Counted from the first letter of the stretch, positions 4,827-45,946 are shown. The stretch: DNA of 64,000 nt from a virus (IMGVR_UViG_3300004881_000001:1-64000), one strand, 5' to 3'. The notes: generated by a model from the sequence alone, not told the origin. Numbers and translations are program-made.

Positions 4827-5847
4827 AACTGTAATTAATATTGTTTAAAAATGTTTTTAATTTATCGTACCCAAACTTTTCTACAAAGTCTGAAGGATCT
4901 TTCTCAGTGTCTTTAGGTAAAAAAATAGCCTTTATATGGTGTATACTCTCTAACTTCTTAGCTGCCTTCTCTCCCGCTTCATCGTTATCGTATAGAAATA
5001 CTATTTGAGAGAATCGATTTCTAAGTCCTTGAATAACTTCTTGCGGTATTCTCATAGCCTCCCCGTGAGGAGCAATAGCGGGTATTCCTAGTTTATGGAG
5101 AACCATTACATCTTTCAAAGACTTTGTGATTATAAGCCTTTCTCCCAACCTAGGTAATTGATCAAATCCCTGTAAGGTTTCTGAGGTGACGTTACTAAGC
5201 CACTTTTGCTTTTTGTTTTTAGCTAATGGTTGGTATATTTTCCAAGAATCTCTACCGTCACTTAGTTTGCCGAAATAATACCCATAACAAATCTTATCTC
5301 TGTTTATATTCTTAAAGCCTTTTCTACTATGCATAGTTAGGCTTTTGACGGGGAATATATTAAATTTTTTCAGTATCTTAACCCCTATACCATATTTATC
5401 CTTCCAGTAAGTGCCATCTATCTTCTCCCACTTCCTTCTATATACTTTTAAAGTTACGGGTACTTTGTACTCTTCTAAGTCCTCATCCTTTAGATTATAA
5501 GTCTTTGGATTAATATTAGGAGCAGTAGGTAAAGAGCCGCTATTTAGATTGTTAAAGCCTAGACAAAAATCTCTATTAATCATACACAAAGCCCCTATAA
5601 AATCTACTGCGTATCTCTTCATTATATAGTTGAAGCAATTTAAAGAATCCCCAGTACTAAAATCAAAGTAGTTAAGTTTTTTACCAGATAGATATATTTT
5701 ACAACTGGGATTATTATCCTTTCTTAATTCACTTCTAAAAAGAGTACCTATTTCTTTAAAGTTAGATATATATGCTTTAAAAATATCATACTCAGATACT
5801 TTACTTAAAATGTTTTCTTTACTTACAACTCTATTCCCGTAACTCAT
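4795..5847 (-). CDS. DNA primase, Toprim domain
   Basis: Toprim-like LIITKSLKDVMVLHKLGIPAIAPHGE ... IVFLYDNDEAGEKAAKKL. Confidence 0.7.
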   Translation of the reverse strand: MSYGNRVVSKENILSKVSEYDIFKAYISNFKEIGTLFRSELRKDNNPSCKIYLSGKKLNYFDFSTGDSLNCFNYIMKRYAVDFIGALCMINRDFCLGFNNLNSGSLPTAPNINPKTYNLKDEDLEEYKVPVTLKVYRRKWEKIDGTYWKDKYGIGVKILKKFNIFPVKSLTMHSRKGFKNINRDKICYGYYFGKLSDGRDSWKIYQPLAKNKKQKWLSNVTSETLQGFDQLPRLGERLIITKSLKDVMVLHKLGIPAIAPHGEAMRIPQEVIQGLRNRFSQIVFLYDNDEAGEKAAKKLESIHHIKAIFLPKDTEKDPSDFVEKFGYDKLKTFLNNINYSYEQELESSNP

Positions 5848-5904: not shown

Positions 5905-6522
5905 TTAAAACAAAAGATCATCGTCGCCTGCCGAACTAGAGCCTGCTGCGCCCATAGCTTCCTTCTCCTCCTCAGAAACTTCGTCTACAGGAGCCTCGTA
6001 TAGATCATACTTAGGATCTGTTTTAAATCTAGATTCCGAAGCACTAGTACCGCCTTTTTCTATAAATGCAGGGATGAACGGTAAAGAGGGTCTGTATTTA
6101 CCGTCTTTAGTGTTTAATTTTAAAACTACTTTTAAGTTAAACTTTTTACCAATAGCCTCATTGTCAGAAAGTAATTTAGAGACATTATCTATAAAGTCTG
6201 AAAACCCTAAAGAATTTTCCACTGCTTGATAATAAGTCTCTTCATCAACTACCTTTGTACAGATGTGGAGTACACTAGTATTCACCTTGTCTTGCAAAAA
6301 AGGATTATCTGAATCGAAGTACGAATGTCTAAAAGTAGCCCCATTAGGCTGCTTGAAAACAATCTCAGCCCTATTTTCAGACACTACTCCTTCCTTATTC
6401 ACTGCCATTCCAAAGCTAACTAATACGCAGCCTTCTACTCTTTCTCCCGTCATTACTGGGATTGAGGAATATCCTTCGGTAATCGCACTACCGTTTTCCC
6501 CCATTCTTGAACCGTAACCCAT
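5905..6522 (-). CDS. ssb: single-stranded DNA-binding protein (putative; T7 gp2.5 / SSB-like acidic tail)
   Basis: C-terminus ...SSAGDDDLLF, an acidic tail ending in an aromatic residue like bacterial SSB DDDIPF and T7 gp2.5; lies between primase and ERF recombinase. Confidence 0.45.
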   Translation of the reverse strand: MGYGSRMGENGSAITEGYSSIPVMTGERVEGCVLVSFGMAVNKEGVVSENRAEIVFKQPNGATFRHSYFDSDNPFLQDKVNTSVLHICTKVVDEETYYQAVENSLGFSDFIDNVSKLLSDNEAIGKKFNLKVVLKLNTKDGKYRPSLPFIPAFIEKGGTSASESRFKTDPKYDLYEAPVDEVSEEEKEAMGAAGSSSAGDDDLLF

Positions 6523-6629
6523 AATTTAAATGTGTTTTTAATTATTAATTTGTAGGACATTTGTCTAAACCTACTATAAAGATGCCCCGTTATCTCCGTA
6601 GTAGGATTGAAGTAATGGCTAAATACTTT

Positions 6630-7181
6630 TTATGTATTTAAAGCTTTAACTTCTTTCATTAAATTTTCTTCATCTTTAGCTAAAATAGTGAAGGATTTCT
6701 TAGCTTCCTCTATAGATTTACCTTTAGCTAAGAAAGCTATTACTTTCTTCCATTCAGGAGTTCCTTGCTTTAGTTGAGGTTTCTTTCCCGTGTTACCTGC
6801 TGATTGATTCCCATCGTCATCCTCTCCTTCAACAATTAAGTTTAAAAAGGCGCACTGTGCGTATCTTTTTTGGTACGTTAAAGATGAGCCTATACCTTGA
6901 GGATCGTTTTTTGAGGGAGTCATTATAAATGATTCCTCAACCCATTGAGAGGATTTAGCGTGAAGTATTCTAGTTGTTAGTCCATTCTCACCTGCTGGAG
7001 CTTGTATAACTATCAATCCATTCTTAACTAGATGAGGTTTTATAGCTTTCTGTATAAACTCTAGTTTAGCGTATTTTGTCTTAAAAAAAGGATTTTTAGA
7101 TTCCTTTACTATAGGCTCTACTTCCTCGCTAAATTTTAACAAAGCTAATCCTAGTTCTGATATTTCTTCTGTTTGTTTCAT
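6630..7181 (-). CDS. erf: ERF-family single-strand annealing recombinase
   Basis: KNPFFKTKYAKLEFIQKAIKPHLVKNGL ... DPQGIGSSLTYQKRYAQCAFLNLIVEGEDDDGN. Start moved to ATG 7181 (MKQTEEIS), 1 nt after the upstream stop; the track start is 7226. Confidence 0.7.
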   Translation of the reverse strand: MKQTEEISELGLALLKFSEEVEPIVKESKNPFFKTKYAKLEFIQKAIKPHLVKNGLIVIQAPAGENGLTTRILHAKSSQWVEESFIMTPSKNDPQGIGSSLTYQKRYAQCAFLNLIVEGEDDDGNQSAGNTGKKPQLKQGTPEWKKVIAFLAKGKSIEEAKKSFTILAKDEENLMKEVKALNT

Positions 7182-7182
7182 A

Positions 7183-7446
7183 CTATTTATTAATTTTAAG
7201 TGTGTCTCCAACTTGGTACTCTTCAAAAGTTACTAATTCCCAACCTCTTCCAGTTGCGTCAGTTATTGCGTACTTAAAAGCCCCATATTTAGACTCAGTA
7301 ATACGTTCAGCTTTGTAAACTACAAGGTTTTGCTTCCCCACCCAGACTTTGTGTGAAGGGTAACTATCACAAGCCATAAATAATACAGTAGCTAAGGTCA
7401 CGTATAAAAAATACTTAATTTTGTTTTTAATTTTAAATGTTTTCAT
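7183..7446 (-). CDS. small lipoprotein (87 aa)
   Basis: Signal peptide with lipobox-like LFMAC|DS. Confidence 0.55.
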   Translation of the reverse strand: MKTFKIKNKIKYFLYVTLATVLFMACDSYPSHKVWVGKQNLVVYKAERITESKYGAFKYAITDATGRGWELVTFEEYQVGDTLKINK

Positions 7447-7555
7447 TTTGTTTTAGTTTTTAAAAGTAGTAGAGGGTGAAGCAGAAACGAATTCTTACTT
7501 CTTAAAGACGTATTCCTTGTTTGCCCGTGTACACTGAGGCTCGCTTACCTCGACT

Positions 7556-7637
7556 CTACTACCAATAACCCTAATTTACATTAAATATATCATAACTCCA
7601 AATAAAATTCATTAAAACGTAATTTTACTCGGTCGTT
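7556..7637 (-). repeat. 82-bp promoter-plus-hairpin repeat, copy R1
   Basis: 80/82 identical (aligned by eye) to 9205..9286. On the minus strand: hairpin TAAAATT-ACGTTTTAATG-AATTTTA (7603..7627), then a TATATTTA -7-like box (7582..7589). Confidence 0.85.
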
Positions 7638-7650
7638 ATAGCCAATTAAA

Positions 7651-7767
7651 CTATTCGCCATTTATATACTCTTTTATTAAGTCGTCAAGTGCAAATTCAT
7701 CAAGGTTTCTAATCCAATCAAACAATACTTCTCGTTTTTCTTCTTCTGTCATTTCTTCTATATTCAT
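7651..7767 (-). CDS. small acidic ORF (38 aa), own call
   Basis: Own translation: MNIEEMTEEEKREVLFDWIRNLDEFALDDLIKEYINGE; sits between repeat elements; below the track size cutoff. Confidence 0.3.
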   Translation of the reverse strand: MNIEEMTEEEKREVLFDWIRNLDEFALDDLIKEYINGE

Positions 7768-7791
7768 TTTTATTTATTTAAAATAACTGGC

Positions 7792-7918
7792 TATAACAAC
7801 GTATAAAATTAATACGGGTTAAATGCCTAATTTCAGCGAATTACCATTTAATTAAGTTAAAGCAGTACGGATGGTTTTCGCATTCTATTCCCGTACTAAT
7901 CTTATACAAACCGTTAGC
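7792..7918 (-). repeat. long bracketed palindromic element (TATAAC...GTTAGC)
   Basis: tataacaacgtataaaa ... cttatacaaaccgttagc arms; inner hairpin agtacgg/ccgtact (7865..7897); ends 7 nt before the stop of gene 7925..8179. Confidence 0.6.
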
Positions 7919-7924
7919 GTGCAT

Positions 7925-8179
7925 TTAAGCCTTACCTAAAAACTTTAAGCCTACTTTAAGTCTTGCTCTTGCATTACATCTTTGTAAATAGTCTTTTTCA
8001 TATTGGTCAGTAACAGTTTCGATTTGGTATTTTAATAGACTTGTAGAATAGCTTATCATAGATTCTTTTTCATCTTCACTACAAGCATCACTACAATCAG
8101 TTCCTAAAGCAAACCTTAAAAGTCTTAAAGCGAAGGTCTTGTCTTTTACAATTCTGTTATCTTTTATTGGGTTGTCCAT
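7925..8179 (-). CDS. hypothetical protein (84 aa)
   Basis: ORF track; cassette-like gene flanked by repeat elements. Confidence 0.5.
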   Translation of the reverse strand: MDNPIKDNRIVKDKTFALRLLRFALGTDCSDACSEDEKESMISYSTSLLKYQIETVTDQYEKDYLQRCNARARLKVGLKFLGKA

Positions 8180-8193
8180 ATCTAAAAAAGCAC

Positions 8194-8322
8194 CCTAACA
8201 AATTATAAAAACAAAAGCTATTCAGGTGCTTATTTCTAAGGCTTTTGTCTGTTTGGTATATGCTACCCTTATTCGTGCGTGGAGCATATTTACACGCTTC
8301 AATTTTTATACAAACCGTTAGC
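8194..8322 (-). repeat. long bracketed palindromic element (CCTAAC...GTTAGC)
   Basis: cctaacaaattataaaaa ... tttatacaaaccgttagc, same arm pattern as 7792..7918. Confidence 0.55.
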
Positions 8323-8333
8323 TACAATGAAAA

Positions 8334-8564
8334 TTACTTAACAAAGTTTGGCTTACCATCAAATGCTTTCCAATATAAATACCTCCATCCACTTTGCACG
8401 TAAGGGCTTTTACCTTCCTTATCAAGCAACCTATGCCCACCACTTTTACTAACATTTAAATGTGTTGGATTTTTTATTGTAACCTCAAAGCCATCACTCC
8501 ATTTGTAAGTTCTGTATTCTTCACTTTGTATTTCTATAAAAAATAATCCGCTTTCGTTTATCAT
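8334..8564 (-). CDS. hypothetical protein (76 aa), downstream partner of the Panacea-domain gene
   Basis: ORF track; 56 nt downstream of 8621..9121 on the same strand. Confidence 0.5.
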   Translation of the reverse strand: MINESGLFFIEIQSEEYRTYKWSDGFEVTIKNPTHLNVSKSGGHRLLDKEGKSPYVQSGWRYLYWKAFDGKPNFVK

Positions 8565-8620
8565 ATCCGTAATTTTAAAAGATGACCAGCACCTATATTC
8601 AAACCTTTTTTTGCCATACT

Positions 8621-9121
8621 CTAAAAATTAGAATAATGACCTAAAGTATTTTGTGTATTTACTACTGGAATCCTATTGAAAGAATCTAATGCAAAATCAA
8701 CTGTAGTGTCTTTGTTGATAATTACTTCTTTATCACTCGGTTGATCGCTTAAAAGACCTTTTCTACTGTTTTTCCAAGGTAAATCATTATGAGTTAAATC
8801 AACTAAATCTGAACCTGTTAAATGACCATAAGACCTCCATATATCATTTAAATGATTTACAGTTATATCATCCACATCCAAATTCACAGCTCTATTACTT
8901 GGAATAATAGAACTTCTTTTCATAAACTTAAAATTAGCCCAAACATCATAAACCATAGGACCATATATCCAAGCTTGAATTCTGTCGTTAAACAACCTTT
9001 TGTTATTTTTAACAAAAAACCAAAGCTGAGAATAATACAGTAACTTCTGTAATTTCAACGGACTAACACCTTTCTTAATAAAGAAAGAAGAAATATCTAA
9101 TGCTCTATAATTTGTTTTCAT
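8621..9121 (-). CDS. Panacea / DUF4065 (SocA/GepA-like) antitoxin-domain protein
   Basis: VSPLKLQKLLYYSQLWFFV...IQAWIYGPMVYDVW and ...LTHNDLPWKNS match the DUF4065 hallmarks (KLQKLLYY, AW.YGPV, TH...PW). Confidence 0.7.
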   Translation of the reverse strand: MKTNYRALDISSFFIKKGVSPLKLQKLLYYSQLWFFVKNNKRLFNDRIQAWIYGPMVYDVWANFKFMKRSSIIPSNRAVNLDVDDITVNHLNDIWRSYGHLTGSDLVDLTHNDLPWKNSRKGLLSDQPSDKEVIINKDTTVDFALDSFNRIPVVNTQNTLGHYSNF

Positions 9122-9153
9122 TTTAGTTTTGAATTAGCAATTTCTTGCTTTTG

Positions 9154-9185
9154 CAAATGTACAATATTAATTAATATATAAAAAA
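9154..9185 (-). promoter_or_regulatory. Bacteroidota-type promoter for the Panacea-domain gene
   Basis: Minus strand: TTTT-N20-TACATTTG (-7 box = 9154..9161), about 33 nt upstream of ATG 9121. Confidence 0.45.
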
Positions 9186-9204
9186 CTATCTGAATATCAA
9201 AAAA

Positions 9205-9286
9205 CTACTGCCAATAACCCTAATTTACATTAAAAATATCATAACTCCAAATAAAATTCATTAAAACGTAATTTTACTCGGTCGTT
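9205..9286 (-). repeat. 82-bp promoter-plus-hairpin repeat, copy R2
   Basis: Direct repeat of 7556..7637 with 2 mismatches; hairpin 9252..9276; -7-like TATTTTTA (9231..9238). Confidence 0.85.
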
Positions 9287-9294
9287 GTAAACAA

Positions 9295-9546
9295 TTAAGT
9301 TGTAGTATTTGCATCACAATCTGTTCGCATGCAACTAAATCCTATGCCTTGTTCTCTTTTTAGCAGTCCACACTTACAACTTAACAGTTCAGCTTCGCTT
9401 TTACAACAATGCGTATAATTAATAGCTTCTTCCATAGCATCTATAAAGGTTTCGTTTGGCACATCATCAAATCTTGCTGTTGGTGCTTTTGCAAAAAACT
9501 TTTGTATGTGTTTATCTAATATTTCATTTAATTTTTTTCTGTCCAT
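9295..9546 (-). CDS. hypothetical Cys-rich protein (83 aa)
   Basis: ORF track; CCKSEAELLSCKCGLLKREQGIGFSCMRTDCD. Confidence 0.5.
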   Translation of the reverse strand: MDRKKLNEILDKHIQKFFAKAPTARFDDVPNETFIDAMEEAINYTHCCKSEAELLSCKCGLLKREQGIGFSCMRTDCDANTTT

Positions 9547-9595
9547 TTTTATTGTTTTAGTTATTATTCTAAGCTACTAATCATACACTTTCAAG

Positions 9596-9811
9596 TTAGC
9601 GGTAATTATTTAAAAACCATCTCCAATGCTCCGCTTTCCATAAGTTGGGATTTTTAATGTCTTCTAATTCTGTTGGTGGGTACTCGTTTTTTGTACTGTT
9701 AAACAGCTTGTTAACGTGATTTTTATGTAAGCAATACCACATATCAGCTTTTTCTAAAGCACTACCGCTAACACCACCTAAATTTAATTTATTCTCTTCG
9801 TTCATAAACAT
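9596..9811 (-). CDS. hypothetical protein (71 aa)
   Basis: ORF track; the stop codon lies inside a GCTAAC motif (CGC TAA CT). Confidence 0.5.
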   Translation of the reverse strand: MFMNEENKLNLGGVSGSALEKADMWYCLHKNHVNKLFNSTKNEYPPTELEDIKNPNLWKAEHWRWFLNNYR

Positions 9812-9839
9812 AATTTTAGCTTAAACGTTAGCAACAAGG

Positions 9840-10199
9840 CTACGTTACTGCCTTTAATTCAGATTCTAGTTCCGAAACTTGCTCCTCTAATTCGTCAATT
9901 CTATTATTTAAGTGTGTTATTTCACTTTCAGCATCAGAAGCCCTTTCCTCTGCATAATCTATTTGCCTACCAGCTTCTTTCCTCATACCCTCATTTGTTT
10001 TTCTAACATCTTCAAAGTTTAGTTCAAAGTCGTTATACATTCGGACAGCGTATTCTTTTACAAATACCTCTTTCGCTTCCCCTTCAAGTAAAGGACAACA
10101 ATCATCTACCATACTTTCAAGATAATTAGCTATATCGTTTTTAAATCTTTCTATACTTCTATCAATGTCAGGGCAAGTATGTCCGTAATCTAATGCCAT
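9840..10199 (-). CDS. hypothetical protein with C-terminal coiled coil (119 aa)
   Basis: ORF track; heptad-like ITHLNNRIDELEEQVSELESELKAV. Confidence 0.55.
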   Translation of the reverse strand: MALDYGHTCPDIDRSIERFKNDIANYLESMVDDCCPLLEGEAKEVFVKEYAVRMYNDFELNFEDVRKTNEGMRKEAGRQIDYAEERASDAESEITHLNNRIDELEEQVSELESELKAVT

Positions 10200-10246
10200 A
10201 ATTTTAGTTTTTATTTATTTTTCGTGTTTCATTGTTAACATGTTTA

Positions 10247-10381
10247 TTATCTGGTATATTTATTATAAATCTTAATAGCCTCGTTAATGTCTTCTTTGTT
10301 TTTGTGTTCTCCAATTAGGTCGCCAAATATGTATTCTTTCAATGAATCTAAGTTATTTAATTCCCAAGTTATATCTTCCAT
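10247..10381 (-). CDS. small ORF (44 aa), own call
   Basis: Own translation: MEDITWELNNLDSLKEYIFGDLIGEHKNKEDINEAIKIYNKYTR. Confidence 0.3.
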   Translation of the reverse strand: MEDITWELNNLDSLKEYIFGDLIGEHKNKEDINEAIKIYNKYTR

Positions 10382-10461
10382 ACTCGTTTAAATTTCTGTG
10401 TTTACGTTTAGCGTTGTAAGTCATATTTACACCTAACCGTACTTTTCTCCATTATGCTACT

Positions 10462-10650
10462 TTAATTATTTCTATTCGACCATTCATTGTATATTGAAAT
10501 CAATAACATTGAGAAGCCAAAAGTTCCCATCGCTAATATAATAATAATTTCTAACTTTGGCAACTTTTTTGGATATTCTTCTTGTAAAATTATCAAATTT
10601 GTACATAACCCTGTAGCTGCCCACACTAGTAAAAGTACTATCGCTTCCAT
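10462..10650 (-). CDS. small membrane protein (62 aa, 2 hydrophobic segments)
   Basis: ORF track; IVLLLVWAATGLCTNLIIL and IIIILAMGTFGFSMLLISI. Confidence 0.45.
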   Translation of the reverse strand: MEAIVLLLVWAATGLCTNLIILQEEYPKKLPKLEIIIILAMGTFGFSMLLISIYNEWSNRNN

Positions 10651-11135
10651 AATTGCTCTAAATTATTCCCTAAAATTTTATTTATGAGGAGGTCGATTTC
10701 TACCTTATGGTCTAACCTCTCCAGAAGTAACGAAGGAACTAATTGCCCTAATTTCCTTAAAGCCATGTTCTCGGACACATTCTCAGGAAATATTATCCTA
10801 TAATATGTACTTTCACCCTTTAGCTTTATCCCTACCCAACCTCGTTTCTTTTTACCCCCCAACTTAAAACTAGCTCCTATAAAACAGTTTGCTTCAGTAT
10901 CTTCCCCCAACTCTTCTAATATAGTCTGGGTAAAGGCAACATTGTCTTCGTTGACTCCGTGATTTAAATATTTCTTGTAGGGAGTTGGGTTACAATACAA
11001 CTCCCAACTCATTACATTTTTAGCGGCTTTAGTACTGTTTAACAGGCTATTAGCTATGGAACTACCCGTACCTTTCTCAAAACCCTTTATTTTCAGTTTA
11101 TGTTTAGTAATTTCTTCTATAATTCGATTGTTCAT
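10638..11135 (-). CDS. hypothetical protein (165 aa)
   Basis: ORF track; directly downstream of the helicase gene. Confidence 0.6.
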   Translation of the reverse strand: MNNRIIEEITKHKLKIKGFEKGTGSSIANSLLNSTKAAKNVMSWELYCNPTPYKKYLNHGVNEDNVAFTQTILEELGEDTEANCFIGASFKLGGKKKRGWVGIKLKGESTYYRIIFPENVSENMALRKLGQLVPSLLLERLDHKVEIDLLINKILGNNLEQLWKR

Positions 11136-11140
11136 ATTAG

Positions 11141-12259
11141 TTAAATTTTTTCAACCCAAACTCCGTTTTGTTTTCTATATTTAGCTCTATTGTTTTTATA
11201 ACTTTTTGCGTAATCGTAATGTGCTTCTCCCATTTCCGCTGCTGGGGGGAGTTCTCTAAAGGTTCCCGAGGGGGCTATAAAATTTAAACCTACATTAATC
11301 CCAGGCTCCCCATCTCTATTCTCCAAAATTTCAAAGTTTCTAAAACTGTTCCCCATTATGCCTACATTATAGTTTTGGAATCTATCTAATTTATGTTTAT
11401 AAGGACTAAATAAAGCCATAATCACGTTAGCGTCCCTAGTAGTATATTTTGAATCTCCAAAATCTTTTAGCGTAGGGGTCAGCCTGTTCTTAGTTTGTCT
11501 CTCCTCACTCTCCGCACTAAAAGATAACTGCTGAATAACTACGGGTATAGCTCTAAAGTTATTTCTCAAGCTTACTAAGTATTTACTCATCTTATCGATA
11601 TTTTGCTTAGTTGTGGAGCCTTTCTCATCCACCATTAAAGCAATATGATCTATAATTATAATCCAATATTTATTAGGGTCGTGAGGAGTGTAACTATCAA
11701 ACCTCATTATAGGAGTCCCATCAGGATCTTTATTAATGTTCTTTTTGTGTATTGTACCCATCTTTTCCGCTTTATCTCTAAGGTACTTATACATACCTGT
11801 AGGGTTGTCTGCCATATCATGGATGGTTACACAGTCTTGCATTTTTTCAAAATAATCTCTATAAGATAAAACTAATTCGTAAAGCTCGTCATTACAATGA
11901 TTTTTACCCCTGGATAGTATTGAGTTGACATCCGCTACTATCCCATAGTCATGCCATAACTTTCTAGCTATCCCTTTGATAATCTTAGTCTCTGAATCTA
12001 TCTCGTAAGAGAAGTAATCTATATCTAAGGTAATGCCTGAATCTGGATTATTGATTACATAGTCGTAAGCTCCATAGAAAAATATATCGTCAGCTAAAGA
12101 GGTTTTTCCTGCTTTTGTAGCTGCTCCTAAAAGATAATAAGTTTTTTGCTGTATATCAGGTAAATAACCTCGAAGCCTTTCAAAAGGTATGGGAATACCT
12201 TTATTATTACCGTCCCTACCTCTATTTATTTGTTCTACAGCTTTATCAAAAGTTCCCAT
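11141..12259 (-). CDS. replicative DNA helicase, DnaB/T7 gp4 C-terminal RecA-like fold
   Basis: Walker A YYLLGAATKAGKTSL; Walker B-like WIIIIDHIALM. Confidence 0.75.
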   Translation of the reverse strand: MGTFDKAVEQINRGRDGNNKGIPIPFERLRGYLPDIQQKTYYLLGAATKAGKTSLADDIFFYGAYDYVINNPDSGITLDIDYFSYEIDSETKIIKGIARKLWHDYGIVADVNSILSRGKNHCNDELYELVLSYRDYFEKMQDCVTIHDMADNPTGMYKYLRDKAEKMGTIHKKNINKDPDGTPIMRFDSYTPHDPNKYWIIIIDHIALMVDEKGSTTKQNIDKMSKYLVSLRNNFRAIPVVIQQLSFSAESEERQTKNRLTPTLKDFGDSKYTTRDANVIMALFSPYKHKLDRFQNYNVGIMGNSFRNFEILENRDGEPGINVGLNFIAPSGTFRELPPAAEMGEAHYDYAKSYKNNRAKYRKQNGVWVEKI

Positions 12260-12262
12260 AAG

Positions 12263-13018
12263 CTATTCTGTTGATTCATTAGGATATAATTCTTTTACCA
12301 AATCACTTTGCCAGTACTCTTTACTATTTATATCCATTATAGTAAGTTTCCCATTACGACCTCCTCCTGTATCTAAATTCCAAACATTGCATTTATGCAT
12401 AGGTTTATCTTCCTGCCAAGCCATTGTAGTAGTATGTCCTATGAATATCTCTGAATACGGTCTAAGTAACTTAGGTATAATACCTGTACCTTTATAATTA
12501 CTATGGCCCGATACAGCCTTTTTTTCCCAAAGATCTCTATCCCAATAATAGTTAGTTAAACTACTTTCGTCTCCTAAACCTTCTTCTGAGGTATACCCCC
12601 CATGAACAAAAGCCCTATTTTTATCGTCTACATAGTATAAATGTAAATACTTAAAAAATTTAACGTGCTTTTCCCAATCAAAATCATGATACATCTTAAA
12701 GTTTTCATAAGCTTCTTTAGTAGTGTTTCCTCCATTGTGAATCCAATTGGGATCTTCTACTGTAGTTTCTAACCACTTTTGGCACCATACATCATGATTG
12801 CCTTTTATAAAAATAGGCTTAAACTGAGATTCCTCCTTTATAGTTATAAGTAAATCTACACACTCTGGAGATTGACTCCATCCGTCTACATAATCTCCTA
12901 AGCATATTAACAAATCTTCTTTAGGATTATAATTACATCGATCCAAAACTTGCCGTAAAGCCTTGAAACCCCCGTGTAAATCTCCCATACATAATTCTCT
13001 TTTGGGTTTTAGTTCCAT
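12263..13018 (-). CDS. Ser/Thr-type metallophosphatase (lambda PP / ApaH-like)
   Basis: GDLHGGFKAL ... LICLGDYVDGW ... IKGNHD ... FVHGG ... IGHT motifs in canonical order. Confidence 0.8.
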   Translation of the reverse strand: MELKPKRELCMGDLHGGFKALRQVLDRCNYNPKEDLLICLGDYVDGWSQSPECVDLLITIKEESQFKPIFIKGNHDVWCQKWLETTVEDPNWIHNGGNTTKEAYENFKMYHDFDWEKHVKFFKYLHLYYVDDKNRAFVHGGYTSEEGLGDESSLTNYYWDRDLWEKKAVSGHSNYKGTGIIPKLLRPYSEIFIGHTTTMAWQEDKPMHKCNVWNLDTGGGRNGKLTIMDINSKEYWQSDLVKELYPNESTE

Positions 13019-18100: not shown

Positions 18101-18128
18101 AGTCTCTTTAATTAATCGTTATATGTAA

Positions 18129-18159
18129 ATATACAACTTATTTTTATAATAAACAAACT
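18129..18159 (-). promoter_or_regulatory. class B promoter (copy 1)
   Basis: Minus strand: AGTTTGTTTATTATAAAAATAAGTTGTATAT(TTA) = TTTG-N20-TATATTTA; 31/31 identical to 20498..20528. Confidence 0.6.
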
Positions 18160-18285
18160 ATTTACTGTTTTTTAGGTACTTCTTAGCTGCTTTTTTGAGT
18201 TTTTTATTAGGCCCTTTGTTTTTCCTAATAGCTTTTAGAAACTTTATTAAATCCTTTTTACTAATCTTTATCATGTCCACATCTG

Positions 18286-20469: not shown

Positions 20470-20497
20470 TTTTATCTATTTTAAATTATTTATTTGA

Positions 20498-20528
20498 ATA
20501 TACAACTTATTTTTATAATAAACAAACT
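20498..20528 (-). promoter_or_regulatory. class B promoter (copy 2)
   Basis: Identical 31-mer to 18129..18159; TTTG-N20-TATATTCA. Confidence 0.6.
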
Positions 20529-20531
20529 TTT

Positions 20532-21542: not shown

Positions 21543-21983
21543 TTATTCATATAAAATATGAAATAATTCATAAGGGTCGTCTCCCCTGTCTGAGAACACC
21601 TTCCAAATTAAATTTATATCTAATTTAATCCGATCGTTATGCTCGAAGATTATGAATTTAAACTCATTTCCAATAATTTTAAGAACTATATAGTTATTTA
21701 CGTTAGTTTTTAACTTCACTAATTTACCGTATTCCCTATCTGGGTCATATAGATAGAGTCCTAACCCGTCCTTACAATATTTCCAACCTACGGATACGGG
21801 ACAGCCTAAGTCCCTAACTACTATTTTATTTAAATCTCCAAAATCGTTGTGGTTACAGTAGGAAGTGTCGTCTAATTTAAGTGAGTCAAAATACACCGCA
21901 AACACATAAGTATTAATTGAGTCTGTTTGGGCTACTACAAGCGATGTAATAGCTAAAAATATTATTGTTATTATCTTCTTCAT
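21543..21983 (-). CDS. secreted protein (146 aa); paralog family with 28961..29494
   Basis: Signal peptide MKKIITIIFLAITSLVVAQ; shared YC.D.L.LYLY and PY.LF.L blocks. Confidence 0.55.
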   Translation of the reverse strand: MKKIITIIFLAITSLVVAQTDSINTYVFAVYFDSLKLDDTSYCNHNDFGDLNKIVVRDLGCPVSVGWKYCKDGLGLYLYDPDREYGKLVKLKTNVNNYIVLKIIGNEFKFIIFEHNDRIKLDINLIWKVFSDRGDDPYELFHILYE

Positions 21984-21987
21984 AATT

Positions 21988-22054
21988 CTAATTTACATTA
22001 AATATATCATAACTCCAAATAAAATTCATTAAAACAGAATTTTACTCGGTCGTT
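21988..22054 (-). repeat. promoter-plus-hairpin repeat, copy R3 (67 nt)
   Basis: 65/67 identical to 7571..7637; hairpin 22020..22044; -7-like TATATTTA (21999..22006), 15 nt upstream of ATG 21983. Confidence 0.8.
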
Positions 22055-22064
22055 AGCATTAATA

Positions 22065-22712
22065 CTAACCCCACTGGTTGGCAATAGCTTCTGCCATACC
22101 TTTAAATGTTTTACTTCTTAATGTTCTTAAATGTTCTTTGCTTGTTGCTTGGGCTAAACATTCATAAATCCAAGTAGCTTGTCTTTTAGTTTTACCAGTT
22201 TTTTTATCTACCCACTCTTTAAATTCTCCCTTTTCAACCACATTTGTATGCTTTAATTTTGGTAAGTTCTTTAACCATAAACAAGTAGCTTTACTCGCTT
22301 TGTCGCCAAAATGATAAGGATGTACTATTTGGTCAGGTTTTCTTATTTGGCTACTAATTACGCTCACAGGGTTTTCAATAGCTATTTTTTCTATTGGTAC
22401 ATCCATTAATTTTCTAACAAAATCAAGTGCATCTTCTTGGTTTTTCTTTCTAACCTCATTTATTACTTTATTGCCATTTTCGTCTTTCTTATACATAGCC
22501 CAAGCACCTGCTACACTTAAATATGTACAAGGTGGGTGTGCTATCATCATATCCCAACCTTTATCTATCACTTCAAAAACATCTTGTTGGTAATGCCATT
22601 CAGGATGTCCTCCGCTACAAGGTAATAAATCACAACTGTATGCTTCGTGTCCTAATTTTCTAAATTCTTTTGTTATTGCTTGGCTCTCTTCACAAGCTAC
22701 TAATATTCTCAT
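22065..22712 (-). CDS. C5-cytosine DNA methyltransferase-like protein (putative)
   Basis: Motif IV-like HPPCTYLS (PC dipeptide), motif VI-like IENPVS (ENV-like), C-terminal FKGMAEAIANQW. No canonical FxGxG SAM loop (ILVACEESQ instead). Confidence 0.4.
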   Translation of the reverse strand: MRILVACEESQAITKEFRKLGHEAYSCDLLPCSGGHPEWHYQQDVFEVIDKGWDMMIAHPPCTYLSVAGAWAMYKKDENGNKVINEVRKKNQEDALDFVRKLMDVPIEKIAIENPVSVISSQIRKPDQIVHPYHFGDKASKATCLWLKNLPKLKHTNVVEKGEFKEWVDKKTGKTKRQATWIYECLAQATSKEHLRTLRSKTFKGMAEAIANQWG

Positions 22713-25171: not shown

Positions 25172-25194
25172 AGTTGTTGTTTTAATATACTACA

Positions 25195-25224
25195 ATATAC
25201 AACTTATTTTTATAAAAACAAATT
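25195..25224 (-). promoter_or_regulatory. class B promoter (copy 3)
   Basis: Minus strand: AATTTGTTTTTATAAAAATAAGTTGTATAT(TGT). Confidence 0.55.
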
Positions 25225-26155
25225 AAAATAGGTGTGAAAGTTTATTTCTAACCTCAACAAACACAAAATGTTTTAAAGTGCCGAAATTAATAGTGGGATT
25301 TTTATATTTTTTAATAAAATTCCAACAGTCCTCCTTAACCACATCATAGTAAATGGTATTGAGAAGTTGGGGAATGTTTTTACTGCTAAAACCTCTTTGC
25401 TCTAACTCTATCTTAGCTTGCACTTTCTCGCATAAAGCTTTAGTTACAAATTCTTCAGCTATCTTCTCTTCTATAAGTTTCTTACCTTTGTTTAATTCAG
25501 TAGCCCCATGAACTTTAGTATGTTTCTCCTTAAACTCAGAGGTCACTATTTTAGCCCATGTTTGTCTATTGTATTTATTTTTAAAATCATAATTTTTAAT
25601 GACAATACCTTCCCCAACGCCTTTACCGTCTTCTATTAAGAATACGTTTTTAATTAATTGGTTAATCAGTTGTTCGTAGGAAGCGTTATTAATAGCGCAT
25701 ATAGGCACAATATAGTCTAAACCCTTTTCTTCCAATTTACCGCAATAATCTTCATAGTGCAAATATTTAATAGTGCTATCCCCTTCGTGAGTAATCTCTT
25801 CAGCATTTTTTTCTACCGATATATCAAAAATATAAAAGCGTCTCCACGCATCTTCTCTATAAGTTTTTAACGCATGAGGTACTAACCACTCTCCATGGAG
25901 TCTGTGGGTAGGATTCTCCTTTAAATACTTTATTAAAGAACTTTGTTGTTTAGCCCACTCATAAAAACCCGCATTGTCTTTATCTAAGGTTAAGTGCCTA
26001 TTTCTGCTCCCTGCTTGTATTTTTCCATCTTTGTCTAGCCAAACGCTGGCATTAGTTCCATCTAATTTAGGAAAAATATAGCATAATCCTAATTCTATGT
26101 TCTGAACTTCTGGTGTTCCAAACCTTTCTAAATGTTGATATTTTTTAAATTCCAT
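25223..26155 (-). CDS. ATP-dependent RNA ligase (Rnl2 / PF09414-like nucleotidyltransferase)
   Basis: Motif I FPKLDGTN (KxxGxN type), motif III LHGEW, motif IV EGIVIK, motif V KIVTSEFKEK. Confidence 0.6.
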   Translation of the reverse strand: MEFKKYQHLERFGTPEVQNIELGLCYIFPKLDGTNASVWLDKDGKIQAGSRNRHLTLDKDNAGFYEWAKQQSSLIKYLKENPTHRLHGEWLVPHALKTYREDAWRRFYIFDISVEKNAEEITHEGDSTIKYLHYEDYCGKLEEKGLDYIVPICAINNASYEQLINQLIKNVFLIEDGKGVGEGIVIKNYDFKNKYNRQTWAKIVTSEFKEKHTKVHGATELNKGKKLIEEKIAEEFVTKALCEKVQAKIELEQRGFSSKNIPQLLNTIYYDVVKEDCWNFIKKYKNPTINFGTLKHFVFVEVRNKLSHLF

Positions 26156-31659: not shown

Positions 31660-31701
31660 GGTTTGTTTTTTATTTGAGTATACGTGTTGAGTTTATAAAA
31701 G

Positions 31702-31753
31702 GTTACAACGCAACCTAAAATTCATTAAAACGTAATTTTAGGTTGTTGTTAGC
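31702..31753 (-). repeat. bracketed palindromic element with 11-bp stem and conserved loop
   Basis: aacctaaaatt-cattaaaacgt-aattttaggtt (31712..31744), outer ggttacaacg / gttgttagc; GTTAGC overlaps stop codon 31753..31755. Confidence 0.75.
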
Positions 31754-31950
31754 TACAATAAACTATCTATAACAATGTCAAGTATCTTTTTACTTGCTTT
31801 GTAATCATTCCACGCTTTTAGTACTTCGGGTTTTTCTTTTTCAAGAATAGGCATGAGTCTTTCAAAAGTACTTAACCTTTCTAAATCTTCTTTTGCTTGC
31901 CAAAAATATTTTAAGTCGTTTAAGTCTTGTTCTGTTAATTTATTTTCCAT
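31753..31950 (-). CDS. hypothetical protein (65 aa)
   Basis: ORF track; cassette-like. Confidence 0.5.
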   Translation of the reverse strand: MENKLTEQDLNDLKYFWQAKEDLERLSTFERLMPILEKEKPEVLKAWNDYKASKKILDIVIDSLL

Positions 31951-31986: not shown

Positions 31987-32037
31987 GCTAACAATGTGTG
32001 TAGCACATTAAAACGATGCCATACACAAACCGTTACC
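31987..32037 (-). repeat. bracketed palindromic element (GCTAAC...GTTACC), homolog of 22748..22797
   Basis: gctaacaatg-TGTGTA-GCA-cattaaaacga-TGC-ca-TACACA-aaccgttacc. Confidence 0.7.
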
Positions 32038-32040
32038 CAC

Positions 32041-32080
32041 AATAAAATTCATTAAAACAGAATTTTACTCGGTCGTTAGC
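32041..32080 (-). repeat. partial promoter-plus-hairpin repeat, copy R4 (hairpin half only)
   Basis: aataaaattcattaaaacagaattttactcggtcgttagc; identical over 37 nt to the matching part of copy R3 (22018..22054); lacks the -7 box part. Confidence 0.75.
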
Positions 32081-32291
32081 GTTCATTTGCCAACGCTTCT
32101 TGTTTTCTAATAATTAGCTTTGCTTCCATCCTTTGAGCGTCAAACCTAATATCATCTATTAAGTATATTGCATCAACTACATTTCCTTTCTTTATTAAAT
32201 CTGTAAGCAAATCTAATTTTCCGCAAATCAACTCATCTCTTGGCGTATCTATTGTTTTAGGCATTTTATTGGTTTTATTGTCAACGCACAT
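32076..32291 (-). CDS. hypothetical protein (71 aa)
   Basis: ORF track; the stop TAA is embedded in GCTAAC (CGC TAA CG). Confidence 0.5.
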   Translation of the reverse strand: MCVDNKTNKMPKTIDTPRDELICGKLDLLTDLIKKGNVVDAIYLIDDIRFDAQRMEAKLIIRKQEALANER

Positions 32292-32299
32292 AAACGAAC

Positions 32300-32350
32300 G
32301 CTAACAAAATTTAAAATTCATTAAAACGAAATTTTACTTTCGGCATTAGC
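32300..32350 (-). repeat. bracketed palindromic element (GCTAAC...ATTAGC) with conserved-loop hairpin
   Basis: Hairpin taaaatt-cattaaaacga-aatttta (32312..32336). Confidence 0.7.
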
Positions 32351-34454: not shown

Positions 34455-34604
34455 TTACAAAGTTTCGCAATATTCTTTAAGTATTTCATATTGCTGCTGT
34501 GTAATAGCCTTATCTTGCCTCCACATATCAAGAAGTTCATCCTGCATATGACTACAAACTGTCAACATCATCATCTTATCGTATAGTGTGTTATCTTTAA
34601 TCAT
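34455..34604 (-). CDS. small ORF (49 aa), first gene of the leftward arm, own call
   Basis: Own translation: MIKDNTLYDKMMMLTVCSHMQDELLDMWRQDKAITQQQYEILKEYCETL; the ATG is 3 nt after a -7 box. Confidence 0.35.
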   Translation of the reverse strand: MIKDNTLYDKMMMLTVCSHMQDELLDMWRQDKAITQQQYEILKEYCETL

Positions 34605-34607
34605 ACT

Positions 34608-34640
34608 ACAATATACGACTTATCTTTATAACTACCAAAC
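34608..34640 (-). promoter_or_regulatory. class B promoter (copy 5), leftward early promoter
   Basis: Minus strand: TTTG-GTAGTTATAAAGATAAGTCG-TATATTGT-AGT-ATG. Confidence 0.5.
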
Positions 34641-34960
34641 ATTTGAACAACTTTATTTACCATATCCATACCATAAAGTAAATTATACAACCACCAAACA
34701 AATAACAATGTAATACAATTAACCACTTTCCCATTTTCCCCACAAACAAGAGCGAGAGCTGACGCATAAGCCCTCAACATAGCCGATAGATACCACCACC
34801 CCATATACACATACAATACATAAGATGTAATCAAAGGATCATCAAGCTCAACAACCCAACTTCAAATCCCTAATCCCAATTTCCTTTTGCACGGGGGGTA
34901 TGACCCCTCAATAATTAAAAGGGGGGGAGTTGTATAGGTGGTCTCCACTCTCACTTTCTC

Positions 34961-36964: not shown

Positions 36965-36993
36965 AAATAAATATAAAAAAATGTGTTAAATAA

Positions 36994-37025
36994 TTTGGAA
37001 TTGTCAAATATTCTTCGTATCTTTA
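36994..37025 (+). promoter_or_regulatory. class A promoter (copy 3)
   Basis: TTTGGAATTGTCA...TATCTTTA, TTTG-N20 spacing; embedded in the 31-nt exact repeat 36976..37006 = 37198..37228. Confidence 0.6.
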
Positions 37026-37030
37026 TATTA

Positions 37031-37174: not shown

Positions 37175-37215
37175 TTCTCACCTTAGACTATGTTCTCAAA
37201 AAATGTGTTAAATAA

Positions 37216-37247
37216 TTTGGAATTGTCATTTATTATGATTATCTTTA
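37216..37247 (+). promoter_or_regulatory. class A promoter (copy 4)
   Basis: TTTGGAATTGTCA-N-TATCTTTA with 20-nt spacer; no convincing ORF for about 800 nt downstream. Confidence 0.6.
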
Positions 37248-37547
37248 CTTTATAATTCCTTGTTAGTTCAAGGTTCTCTTCTCATAAGAACAGGGCAGCA
37301 CTTATAACACCTAAAAAAGTTGGACGTTATTTGGATCAGGTACATATGAAATATCAAAACTTTAGAAGATGCGGATGAAGGTTCTAGTTTTGTTCTGAGA
37401 GAAATTCCAGTTGTTTTTTGTGGCTGACACGATTGAAAATCAAAAATTAATAATTTTCCAAAGCTTTTTAAGTTTTGGACGGGCTGGAGAGGAGAGATTT
37501 TCAAATAGGATTGTATGAATTTTACTTAAAGAAGATTTATATAAGTT

Positions 37548-40050: not shown

Positions 40051-40362
40051 ATGCAGAGAAAGGTACAAAAGATAATTAAACAATTAGCGGAGAAGTACGG
40101 ACTTGAGGAGAAAGTAGTTGAAGCCATTAGTAATTCACAGTTTCTGTGTACTAAAGAGTCGTGTAAGAAAGGAGTGAAGTGGAAGTCCGATACTTTTCTT
40201 AATATTAGGTGGAAGAGACTGGGATTACTGGTAGCTAAACCTTCCAAAATATACATTTTAAAGCAGGCCCATGAAAGAAGATTATTTAAAGCAGAGGATT
40301 TGGATAGAGGAAGACTCGGTATCGGGAGAGAGGACGAAGAGGATAACGTGGACATACGTTAA
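40051..40362 (+). CDS. hypothetical protein (103 aa)
   Basis: ORF track; overlaps the next ORF by 92 nt, so one boundary is probably wrong. Confidence 0.45.
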   Translation: MQRKVQKIIKQLAEKYGLEEKVVEAISNSQFLCTKESCKKGVKWKSDTFLNIRWKRLGLLVAKPSKIYILKQAHERRLFKAEDLDRGRLGIGREDEEDNVDIR

Positions 40363-40552
40363 TCTTGCGGATGTACTAGACTTCGAAGAGTATAATGGTT
40401 CTTTACTAGCAGATGTAGATAAACCTATGATTACTATCAACACTCCTCATGATGCTAAGATAATTTTTTGGGATATACAAGATTTTTTTAAGATATACGG
40501 ACAGTATAAAATCTATAAGAAAAGACAAGATGGGATATTTAACGGAAACTAA
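40271..40552 (+). CDS. hypothetical protein (93 aa)
   Basis: ORF track; see the overlap note for 40051..40362. Confidence 0.45.
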   Translation: MKEDYLKQRIWIEEDSVSGERTKRITWTYVNLADVLDFEEYNGSLLADVDKPMITINTPHDAKIIFWDIQDFFKIYGQYKIYKKRQDGIFNGN

Positions 40553-40733
40553 TATACCATACGATTACAGTGGTATTAAATGGACGCATTTTTTTGAAGA
40601 AGTTCCTAGTTGGGCTGTTAAATGCATAGTACTTAAAGAAGGAAAAGGTTTGAGAGCGGGAAAGGTTAAGATATTAGATGTAATCGGCACAAAGCCTTAT
40701 TGGATACACAAAAAATATTTAGTAGAGATATGA
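40530..40733 (+). CDS. hypothetical protein (67 aa)
   Basis: ORF track. Confidence 0.5.
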   Translation: MGYLTETNIPYDYSGIKWTHFFEEVPSWAVKCIVLKEGKGLRAGKVKILDVIGTKPYWIHKKYLVEI

Positions 40734-41008: not shown

Positions 41009-41320
41009 ATGGAAGTGGACAAATTGCCAGTACCTTACTGGGACAACGTAGTAATTAAGAATCCTTTGTCGGGAGAGTTTATGGAGAAGTTTGAAGACGA
41101 ACTTTCTTTAATTCCTGAGAAGGACAGGGAAGAATACAAAAGAGAACATCTACAAGGGGTTTGGGATAATATAGAGATCCTTTCTGTAGGTCCAGATTGT
41201 TCTGCGGCTAAAAAAGGAGACGTAGTGATTATAAAGAACGCAAACCCTAATAAATGGACGTTTGTTTCTGAGGAGAAGTACATAATGTTAAGCGAAAGAG
41301 ATTTTATTGGAAGATGGTAA
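41009..41320 (+). CDS. GroES-like co-chaperonin (putative)
   Basis: 103 aa; N-terminal VPYWDNVVIK and SVGPDCSAAKKGDVVIIK ... IMLSERDFIG resemble GroES P..DRVLVK / AVG.G....VKVGD.V.F / L.L.E.DIL; its 3' end overlaps the chaperonin gene. Confidence 0.5.
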   Translation: MEVDKLPVPYWDNVVIKNPLSGEFMEKFEDELSLIPEKDREEYKREHLQGVWDNIEILSVGPDCSAAKKGDVVIIKNANPNKWTFVSEEKYIMLSERDFIGRW

Positions 41321-42789
41321 ACTTACAGGGAGAGTACACGGAAGTTTTTATTGGAGAGAAAGTGAAGGAAGGTCTTTTAAAGGGCTGTCAAACTATTATA
41401 GATGTAGTAGGCACTACTTACGGACCTTTGGGGAACAACGTAGCTATAACAAAGTGGCTAAACACTCCTCACGTAACTAAAGACGGGGTAACTACTTTAG
41501 CTGATTTAAGAGCTAAGGATCCTATAGAGAACGTAGCAATTGAGATTATTAAGCAAGCAGCTAAAGCTACCGCTGAATTAGCAGGAGACGGGACAACTAC
41601 AACTTCTTTATTAACAGCTTTGTTAGTTAAGAATTGTATGGATCTATCTCTATCTGCTGGAGAGCTTAGTAGAGAGTTAGCTAGTATTTGTGAGAGTTTT
41701 ATATCTCAAGTAGACGCTATAACTAAGAAGGTGGCCACTAAAGAAGATTTGATTAATGTAGCTACAATATCCTCTAACGGAGATGAGCAGTTAGCGGCAT
41801 TGGTTATCGAGGCTTATGAGATGGTAGGAGAAGATGGAGTAGTATCTGTTAAGAACTCTAAGGAGTATAAGACCTACATAGAAACTACTGAAGGTATTAG
41901 ACTTGAAGTTTCTAACATAGTTCCTGAACTAAGGAATCAAGACGGAACTTCTTCTCTCTATGAAAACCCTAAAGTGTTAGTAACTAATCTAGATATTAAG
42001 GGTAGAGAAGACGCTATAAAGTTAGTAACATTAGCGGGAAGTCTAGAGAGTCCTTTAGTAATAGTAGCTAATGATATGGATAAAGGGGCTTCTGAAGTTA
42101 TAGCTTATAACAAGTACACCCAAAGTATTCCTATAGACGTTATACGTGCGCCAGGGATCTCTCAGGCTAGGCAAGACGCTTTTAAAGACATTGCAGTAGC
42201 TACGGGAGCAACTTTGCTTGATAAAGCTACAGGTTGGAGTATATCAGGTTTAAATGAGAAGTTACTAGGGGAGGCAGACTCTATTGAGATAAAATCTCAG
42301 GAGACTATTATTTTAGGCCATAAAGGAGATATTTCTGAAAGGCTTAAATATTACCAAACAAAGATAGAGCAAGATAAAGACGGCCTAGCTCCTAATTATA
42401 AAAAAAGATTAGCTATGTTGACGGGAGGGTCTGCTATTATTTATGTAGGAGGGTCTAATGAGGTTGATGTTATGGAGAAGAAGGATAGGTTAGACGACAC
42501 TGTTAGAGCTACCTATGCGGCTATTAACGGAGGTGTAGTACCTGCGGGAGGGTTGACCTTAGATTCTTTGGCTATCTCAGGTGACGATGTTGAAGCGGTT
42601 GTTTTGTGCGCTATCGAAGATCTTTTAAGCTTGTTGTTTAAAGGATCTGCTGAGGAAATAATTACTAATGTGGAGGAAAAAGGTTTAGTAGACCCCGCGA
42701 TGGTTTTAAAAACCTCAATTAAAAACGCTTTCTCCGCAGCTAATATGATATTAACCACTAAGACTGTGGTAGCAAAAATAGACAAATAA
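41314..42789 (+). CDS. groEL: GroEL-like chaperonin (Cpn60 family, 491 aa)
   Basis: VVGTTYGPLGNNVAI...TPHVTKDGVTTLADL...DPIENVAIEIIKQAAKATAELAGDGTTTTSLLTA aligns with GroEL TLGPKGRNVVL..P.ITKDGVSVA...FENMGAQMVKEVASK..D.AGDGTTTATVLA. Confidence 0.85.
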   Translation: MVNLQGEYTEVFIGEKVKEGLLKGCQTIIDVVGTTYGPLGNNVAITKWLNTPHVTKDGVTTLADLRAKDPIENVAIEIIKQAAKATAELAGDGTTTTSLLTALLVKNCMDLSLSAGELSRELASICESFISQVDAITKKVATKEDLINVATISSNGDEQLAALVIEAYEMVGEDGVVSVKNSKEYKTYIETTEGIRLEVSNIVPELRNQDGTSSLYENPKVLVTNLDIKGREDAIKLVTLAGSLESPLVIVANDMDKGASEVIAYNKYTQSIPIDVIRAPGISQARQDAFKDIAVATGATLLDKATGWSISGLNEKLLGEADSIEIKSQETIILGHKGDISERLKYYQTKIEQDKDGLAPNYKKRLAMLTGGSAIIYVGGSNEVDVMEKKDRLDDTVRATYAAINGGVVPAGGLTLDSLAISGDDVEAVVLCAIEDLLSLLFKGSAEEIITNVEEKGLVDPAMVLKTSIKNAFSAANMILTTKTVVAKIDK

Positions 42790-45890: not shown

Positions 45891-45899
45891 CGTTAAAAA

Positions 45900-45931: not shown

Positions 45932-45946
45932 GTAATTGATTAAGAT

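Follow-up and report, generated by a model that had tools for sequence, protein, structure and literature searches.

An orphan Panacea antitoxin gene, cut from a bacterial PanAT cassette, as a candidate counter-defence factor in a crAss-like phage

The stretch of DNA analysed here, referred to as the window, comprises 64,000 nucleotides (nt) of a viral contig (IMGVR_UViG_3300004881_000001:1-64000). On its minus strand it carries panA, an intact gene for a 166-amino-acid (aa) antitoxin-type protein of the Panacea (DUF4065) family, which is present as an orphan copy. An earlier note on this DNA had assigned the product to DUF4065/Panacea from the sequence, and the call was borne out by a Pfam search, in which PanA matched PF13274 (SocA_Panacea) with an E-value of 5.9e-17 and 63 bits against a cut-off of 25.7. 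The match spanned residues 24-117 of PanA and the complete profile (positions 1-113), and the protein contained the motifs KLQKLLYYSQ, AWIYGPMVYDVW and LTHNDLPW. PanA also matched PHROG 1281 (3.7e-35) and PHROG 10390. The start codon, the stop codon and the full-length reading frame were all intact. A protein search returned more than 110 clusters of PanA homologues, many of them exactly 166 aa long, from Flavobacterium psychrophilum, F. segetis, Aquimarina, Psychroflexus, Winogradskyella, Polaribacter and other Bacteroidota. The phage protein was 81-92% identical, and equal in length, to the PanA proteins of a gene cassette found in Flavobacteriia.

The composition of this cassette was constant. 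In all 32 related PanA loci (49-92% aa identity), which came from Flavobacteriia chromosomes, metagenome-assembled genomes (MAGs), metagenome contigs and two temperate-phage or prophage contexts, a conserved partner of about 181-200 aa overlapped panA or followed it by no more than 13 nt. Each of the 30 bacterial, MAG and metagenome loci (PanA 69-92% identical) had an open reading frame (ORF) of about 181 aa lying 2-13 nt 3' of panA, and the flanking genes varied between these loci. A constant pair in varying neighbourhoods behaves as a mobile two-gene cassette. Temperate Riemerella phages carried a 49% identical PanA, overlapped by a 200-aa partner and adjoining an integrase; this partner was related to the 181-aa family (hhalign probability 92%, E 6e-7). 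On a prophage-like IMG/VR contig (L054), a 53% identical PanA was followed by a 185-aa partner, 36% identical by tblastn. The PanA of F. segetis, WP_072992157.1, fell into the same sequence cluster as the window PanA (87% identical). Together with WP_072992154.1 it is listed in Dataset S1 of Kurata et al. (2022, PMC8832971) as a predicted PanAT pair of toxin cluster pT99/T77, with order A|T and a gap of 3; the T77 pair is marked there as 'notest', and the HHpred result for the family representative is given as 'NoHit' (PMC8832971). A Panacea match was also seen at 40209-40676 in GenBank record OQ791282.1 ('Shigella phage Henu10'). The match is identical in coordinates to that in Riemerella phage vB_RanS_PT15; the record is probably mislabelled or contaminated.

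Bacterial cassettes adjoined genes that strongly matched candidate defence models of PADLOC, namely PDC-S01 (6e-167) and PDC-S22 (1e-113) in F. psychrophilum, PD-Lambda-2_B (9e-47) beside the Psychroflexus cassette and a mad3/PtuA/AriA-like ATPase beside the Aquimarina cassette. This suggests, as an association only, that the cassettes of PanA and its 181-aa partner sit in a defence-island setting. The PADLOC-matching neighbours were located at 1055-2173 and 5046-5729 in F. psychrophilum LT670843.1 (L019), at 415-1512 in L026 and at 480-1562 in L023.

Comparison with the bacterial cassettes delimited what the phage holds of the pair (Table 1). By blastn, positions 9219..8600 of the window aligned with the F. 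psychrophilum, Aquimarina and Psychroflexus cassettes at 82-87% nucleotide identity, and nothing else aligned. The homology started at TTGGCAGTAG, some 98 nt before the panA ATG, and the bacterial cassettes begin to resemble each other at the same point. It spanned a TACATTTG box and all of panA, and stopped exactly after ATGGCAAAAAAAGGTTTG. This last sequence (8617..8600) is identical to the start of the gene for the 181-aa partner, the predicted toxin, and represents its codons 1-6 (MAKKGL). Beyond codon 6 the remnant frame continued into phage DNA as MAKKGLNIGAGHLLKLRI, up to a TGA stop that overlaps the ATG of a downstream 76-aa ORF as ATGA (8564..8561). From the breakpoint at 8600/8599, the window read AATATAGGTGCTGG...CTTTTAAAATTACGGATATG (from 8599 onwards). 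By eye, in a comparison that was not scored, this sequence resembled the native leader that precedes the 76-aa gene on phage contig L004 (aattatagatggtgttagctatcttttaaaattgctattATG), a contig that lacks Panacea. In the scored blastn comparison, homology to L004 began at 8583, 16 nt past the breakpoint. The breakpoint appears to lie directly against the leader that belongs to this small and unrelated phage gene. No toxin homologue was detected elsewhere in the 64 kb, either by tblastn with four partner sequences or by searching the six-frame translation with a hidden Markov model of the partner family (best E 0.35). Since the cognate partner is cut to six codons and is absent from the 64 kb, the phage locus is not a two-gene toxin-antitoxin (TA) module.

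Table 1. Features at and around panA in the window
Feature	Position	Strand	Basis
panA, intact 166-aa Panacea/DUF4065 antitoxin-type gene, orphan copy	8621..9121	-	PF13274 and homology to bacterial PanA
Bacterial-cassette segment: promoter region, panA and first 18 nt of the (predicted) toxin gene	8600..9219	-	blastn and alignment
Toxin-gene remnant frame	8561..8617	-	sequence, alignment, toxin sequences
TACATTTG, Bacteroidetes-type -7-like box, came in with the cassette	9154..9161	-	read from sequence, and alignment
76-aa all-beta protein gene, independent mobile phage gene	8334..8564	-	homologues, nucleotide homology, AF2 model
Intergenic element copy, directly upstream of the captured segment	9205..9298	-	repeat search, ends read in alignments
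Second intergenic element copy, 95% identical to the 9205..9298 copy	7556..7649	-	repeat search

The earlier note had described a consensus-like promoter for panA within a repeat-bracketed accessory segment, and each description held in part. The -7-like box is present, 32 nt upstream of the panA ATG (9161..9154, minus strand), and was unchanged in the window and in four bacterial cassettes. However, the full Bacteroidetes consensus, TTTG-N18-22-TAnnTTTG, had no match upstream of panA, because there is no exact TTTG at -33. A sigma-70 scan returned 13 sites against 11 expected, which is background, and no terminators. As for the repeat, a 94-nt direct repeat with 95% identity between its copies does bracket the region, but it belongs to a dispersed family and by itself delimits no accessory island. 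The family numbers at least 5-6 intergenic copies, and in the minus-strand early region its members lie at 7556-7649, 9205-9298, 21973-22066, 31695-31759, 32022-32086 and 32289-32338. They share the core AGTAAAATTnnGTTTTAATGAATTTTA (minus strand), which has a hairpin made up of A and T alone, and the longer copies add TTTG-N20-TAAATTAG, which is a possible promoter in the copy next to the captured segment. The dispersed elements could be early promoters or terminators of the phage, and could also serve as recombination sites for gene shuffling. The final 10-14 nt or so of the copy next to the captured segment (GGTTATTGGCAGTAG) overlap the cassette's 5' end, and the other copy ends in GGTTATTGGTAGTAG, followed by unrelated phage sequence. 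Microhomology of this kind at the junction may have guided the capture. An exact 17-nt repeat, GCTAACGGTTTGTATAA (minus strand), was found at 7902-7918 and 8306-8322, just 3' of an 84-aa ORF and the 76-aa ORF, and the related motif CAAACCGTTA recurs in the element at 32020-32069.

The 76-aa ORF is co-oriented with panA and starts 56 nt past its stop codon, as had been noted previously. It had also been described as lacking a recognisable family, which is correct for curated families: no Pfam or PADLOC match was found, and PHROG 27874 matched only weakly (E 3.5e-4). Nevertheless, an exhaustive search of a representative library gave 429 homologue clusters at E<=1e-3. Members of this family stand alone or form the C-terminal domains of proteins of 100-326 aa, one is fused behind an HD domain, and eight copies occur in one protein of 2,883 aa; as a clue to function, the larger proteins offered the one HD-domain fusion and nothing else. 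The domain has an invariant motif, LNVSKSGGHR, and conserved W and Y residues. Structure prediction with AlphaFold2 (AF2) yielded a confident small all-beta model, with a predicted local distance difference test (pLDDT) score of 91, but the model had no fold match in the PDB, and its structure matches in BFVD were all uncharacterised phage proteins. The possibility that the protein is a truncated toxin was rejected, as the best blastp match to the 181-aa toxins had an E-value of 0.3.

Homologues of the 76-aa protein (35-44% identical) were found in Sinorhizobium/Rhizobium T4-like phages, Caulobacter Autographiviridae and Erythrobacter, Vibrio and Tunturiibacter phages, and none of the isolated-phage records with a homologue was among the Panacea matches. 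Fifteen IMG/VR contigs, jumbo phages included, carried a homologue, and none had a Panacea gene within 4 kb. A Panacea gene was absent from all 24 homologue loci inspected with 2.5-8 kb of flank, which span T4-like, Autographiviridae, jumbo, crAss-like and Terminase_3 phages, and no homologue occurred in any of the 32 close-PanA loci. The co-occurrence of the two families in other genomes that the earlier note had thought worth checking was never observed in these loci. The nearest copies (87-89% aa identity) came from two settings. In a Terminase_3 phage (L004, L050-53) the gene was flanked by a 208-aa gene on one side and HNH/Erf genes on the other, and on a different crAss-like contig (L049) it adjoined a SegE-type GIY-YIG gene and preceded the terminase; the structural proteins of this contig share only 27-40% identity with those of the window. 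Nucleotide homology to unrelated phages (84-87%) was limited to 8583..8324 and 8566..8317. The unit is a mini-cassette common to otherwise unrelated marine phages, seen in three contexts, two of them beside homing-endonuclease-type genes. The different nucleotide homology partners of panA and the 76-aa gene, which meet at 8600/8599, indicate that the two genes came from different sources. Their adjacency is, judging by this homology, the junction of two unrelated mobile genes.

The major capsid protein encoded in the window is a Crassvirus capsid (Crass_capsid, PF23898, E 3e-136), and the nearest relatives of its PolA are those of a Leptolyngbya phage (46%) and crAss-like phages (33-40%). The minus-strand block around panA encodes primase, helicases, PolA, a 5'-3' exonuclease, Erf, an RNA ligase and a DnaB-like helicase, and a plus-strand block encodes terminase, portal and capsid. 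The identity of the phage rests on Crass_capsid, terminase and portal together with the replication genes. Among the ORFs tested in the 64-kb window, none was found to encode an integrase, and with its own primase, helicases, PolA and Erf the carrier looks like a virulent-type crAss-like phage, the hosts of which are probably marine Flavobacteriia. The guanine-plus-cytosine content of the window is about 33%. Megablast of positions 6000-12500 gave no match to GenBank phages, no Rfam family was found in 7000-10000, and no tRNA was found in the window. A GroEL-like chaperonin is encoded at 41314-42789 (PHROG 5725, E 3e-87), directly upstream of the terminase. Two further intergenic repeat families were seen: a 41-nt repeat with ATATACAACTTATTTTTATAA at 18122-18162, 20491-20531, 25188-25228 and 34604-34644, and a 55-nt repeat with TTTGGAATTGTCAAAT at 36976-37030, 37198-37252 and 45882-45936. 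These may be promoters of other temporal classes.

The earlier note had offered two readings of the locus, and the one that we favour is that panA acts as an orphan antitoxin which neutralises a host T77 toxin during infection. We consider this reasonably likely in view of the complete antitoxin half of a cassette, promoter included, with no more than 18 nt of the toxin gene; the neutralisation itself is the part that we infer. The crAss-like phage would have taken the promoter, the full panA gene and six toxin codons from a PanAT (T77) cassette of a host or a prophage. The gene lies in the early/replication block and is co-oriented with it, and its transcription in the infected cell would start at the captured promoter, at the upstream phage intergenic element, or at both. 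The PanA proteins studied by Kurata et al. neutralise by direct binding and are specific for their cognate toxin (PMC8832971). Phage PanA would similarly bind and neutralise the cognate PanT toxin of the host, of about 181 aa, which would otherwise be freed when infection halts the resupply of host antitoxin. In doing so, it would block a TA-based abortive-infection defence.

A number of observations weigh against this explanation, and several concern the partner, which is a toxin by prediction only. The 181-aa protein had no PADLOC match and no sequence-profile match in the PDB, and Pfam searches with 29 members of its family gave nothing consistent. The confident AF2 model of the F. psychrophilum member P0117 (pLDDT 85.5; four beta strands, an alpha helix, a beta strand, an alpha helix, two beta strands and an alpha helix) gave weak Foldseek matches in the PDB to GNAT acetyltransferases (E 0.03-0.07, template-modelling score about 0.4), the likenesses being to SpeG and PseH. 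In the alignment of the partner family, an invariant R69, accompanied by G73 and G75 (P0117 numbering), lies just ahead of the first helix (74-89), a position which we take to be that where GNATs bind acetyl-CoA. As a lead, the partner could possibly be a GNAT-type toxin like TacT or AtaT. Apart from the toxicity of the partner, an anti-phage role of the bacterial pair, expression of the phage PanA and its action on the toxin are likewise steps of inference, and carriage of the cassette by the host is presumed. The searches for a toxin and an integrase cover 64 kb of the 91,824-bp contig, the other 27.8 kb lying outside the window. No second orphan panA was found: neither scanning IMG/VR with a single sequence for relatives of PanA nor an exact-sequence look-up of the window PanA returned another contig, and of the 80 loci from a profile scan of IMG/VR only L054 (53% identity) belongs to this PanA subfamily, and there the gene is paired.

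The sequence of the phage PanA itself also counts on this side. Two residues, V56M and L83V, are unique to it, and the first falls within the GPV motif, a PanA signature in strand beta2 (Kurata et al., 2022, PMC8832971). The signature reads G54-P55-M56 in the phage protein, and the last residue is V in 17 of 17 bacterial copies. Single substitutions in GPV were tolerated, V64S in PanA of Vibrio harveyi among them, and the G62A V64S double substitution was inactivating (Kurata et al., PMC8832971). A defect caused by V56M in the phage protein is nevertheless possible. With the three nearest cassettes taken as a proxy for the ancestor, 16 substitutions were assigned to the phage branch, 5 of them synonymous and 11 non-synonymous, a ratio of about 0.52. 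These are too few to separate constraint from neutrality, so that purifying selection in the phage is not demonstrated.

The same features could be read as those of a relic without function. Illegitimate recombination would recently have brought in a PanAT cassette, whole or in part, the toxin gene would have been lost or would never have entered the phage, and panA would be a passenger, neutral to the phage, that has so far escaped decay. A phage-branch ratio indistinguishable from neutrality, a phage-only change in a conserved motif, an orphan arrangement seen on one contig with no sister phage, and a left-end junction with microhomology that fits accidental capture all speak for such a passenger. 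On the other hand, neither the ORF, with its start and stop, nor the conserved -7 box is damaged, and the deletion took precisely the toxin and spared the whole antitoxin with its promoter. Phage genomes are compact, and panA follows the direction of early transcription. In addition, pairwise ratios of non-synonymous to synonymous substitution rates (dN/dS) between phage panA and 17 bacterial copies were 0.08-0.23, inside the bacterial range (bacterial median 0.116). We regard a relic as unlikely, though it is the chief competitor of the favoured explanation. Alternatively, PanA could serve in another capacity, for example as a SocA-type adaptor through which ClpXP degrades some host or phage protein, or in neutralising toxins that are encoded by competing prophages or satellites instead of the host chromosome. 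SocA, a Panacea protein, is a proteolytic adaptor (PMC8832971), and complete homologous pairs occur beside an integrase on the temperate Riemerella phages and on a prophage-like contig, which makes resident prophages a plausible source of toxin. However, ClpXP and Lon were dispensable for the PanA proteins tested by Kurata et al. (PMC8832971), no evidence points to a different target, and the version involving prophage toxins is a sub-case of the orphan-antitoxin explanation that we favour. Such a role seems quite improbable.

The other reading in the earlier note, that PanA and the 76-aa protein form a new TA or abortive-infection pair, did not survive the comparison with other genomes. The two genes lie next to each other in the same orientation with 56 nt between them, the ATGA overlap between the remnant ORF and the 76-aa start could allow translational linkage on one transcript, and Panacea antitoxins often swap partners (PMC8832971), so that a nascent swap might be envisaged. 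Against this, the large 76-aa family occurred without Panacea in every one of the 24 loci, its nearest copies adjoin other genes, and the gene is a separate mobile unit by nucleotide homology (8583..8324). The partner of this PanA subfamily is always a different protein, and a gene that so many phages carry by itself would hardly require an antitoxin. The co-occurrence data effectively exclude the pair, and even with a nascent partner swap allowed for we give it hardly any credence. It could also be imagined that a partner swap is in progress, in which PanA was cut free 18 nt into the toxin gene and joined to a new gene through the remnant ORF that ends in ATGA. V56M would then have retuned or broadened its specificity, and PanA would neutralise toxins beyond T77 or control the 76-aa protein. 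We find this version very improbable.

The orphan-antitoxin explanation places the locus among a small set of known systems. The closest is PanAT T77 (Kurata et al., 2022, PMC8832971), with which the window shares an 87% identical PanA of 166 aa, a homologous promoter region and six toxin codons; the window differs in having no toxin gene, in its crAss-like phage carrier instead of a chromosome, and in GPM for GPV. T4 Dmd, directed against RnlA/LsoA, and the NADAR protein AdfN, directed against DarTG1, are phage orphan antitoxins (Johannesman et al., 2025, PMC11825919), and like the window they have an antitoxin-type gene without a toxin. The product of panA shows two attributes of this class, being a phage-encoded antitoxin with no toxin in the 64 kb and showing homology to a bacterial TA antitoxin. 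However, T4 Dmd is unrelated in sequence to the host antitoxin, whereas the window PanA is a near-identical copy. AdfN, like panA, was apparently co-opted from a bacterial TA antitoxin, but it is an enzyme (type IV), whereas PanA is a binding-type (type II-like) antitoxin next to which the truncated toxin gene is still visible. Riemerella phages vB_RanS_PT33, PT03, PT15 and CRP12 and IMG/VR contig 2562617179 have a homologous PanA (49-53%) and its partner. The temperate Riemerella phages keep both genes beside an integrase, the classic position of a prophage-borne defence or addiction module, whereas the window keeps the antitoxin alone in an early replication region. Finally, Caulobacter SocA, a type VI antitoxin and ClpXP adaptor for SocB after which PF13274 is named, shares the Panacea domain. 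The similarity is at the domain level only, with no SocB-like partner here and no sign of an adaptor mechanism.

The orphan-antitoxin strategy is already known, and in the library searched no publication was found that links Panacea/DUF4065 to phage orphan antitoxins or anti-defence. What would be new here is counter-defence in which the orphan antitoxin is of the Panacea type, the carrier is a crAss-like phage and a scar of the toxin gene persists. Binding-type antitoxins have no enzymatic signature, which makes orphan type II antitoxins hard to recognise in phages, and comparison with bacterial cassettes at the nucleotide level is a practical way to detect them. The locus documents with unusual clarity how a crAss-like phage that looks virulent took up the antidote part of a cassette alone, and the severed toxin gene can still be read in the sequence. 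Panacea antitoxins are mobile and are found with dozens of toxin partners that are unrelated to one another. If the phage PanA is active, PanAT T77 of the Flavobacteriia, a family that includes the fish pathogen F. psychrophilum, would be a phage-defence system, and one that the phage would get past by means of a stolen cognate antitoxin.

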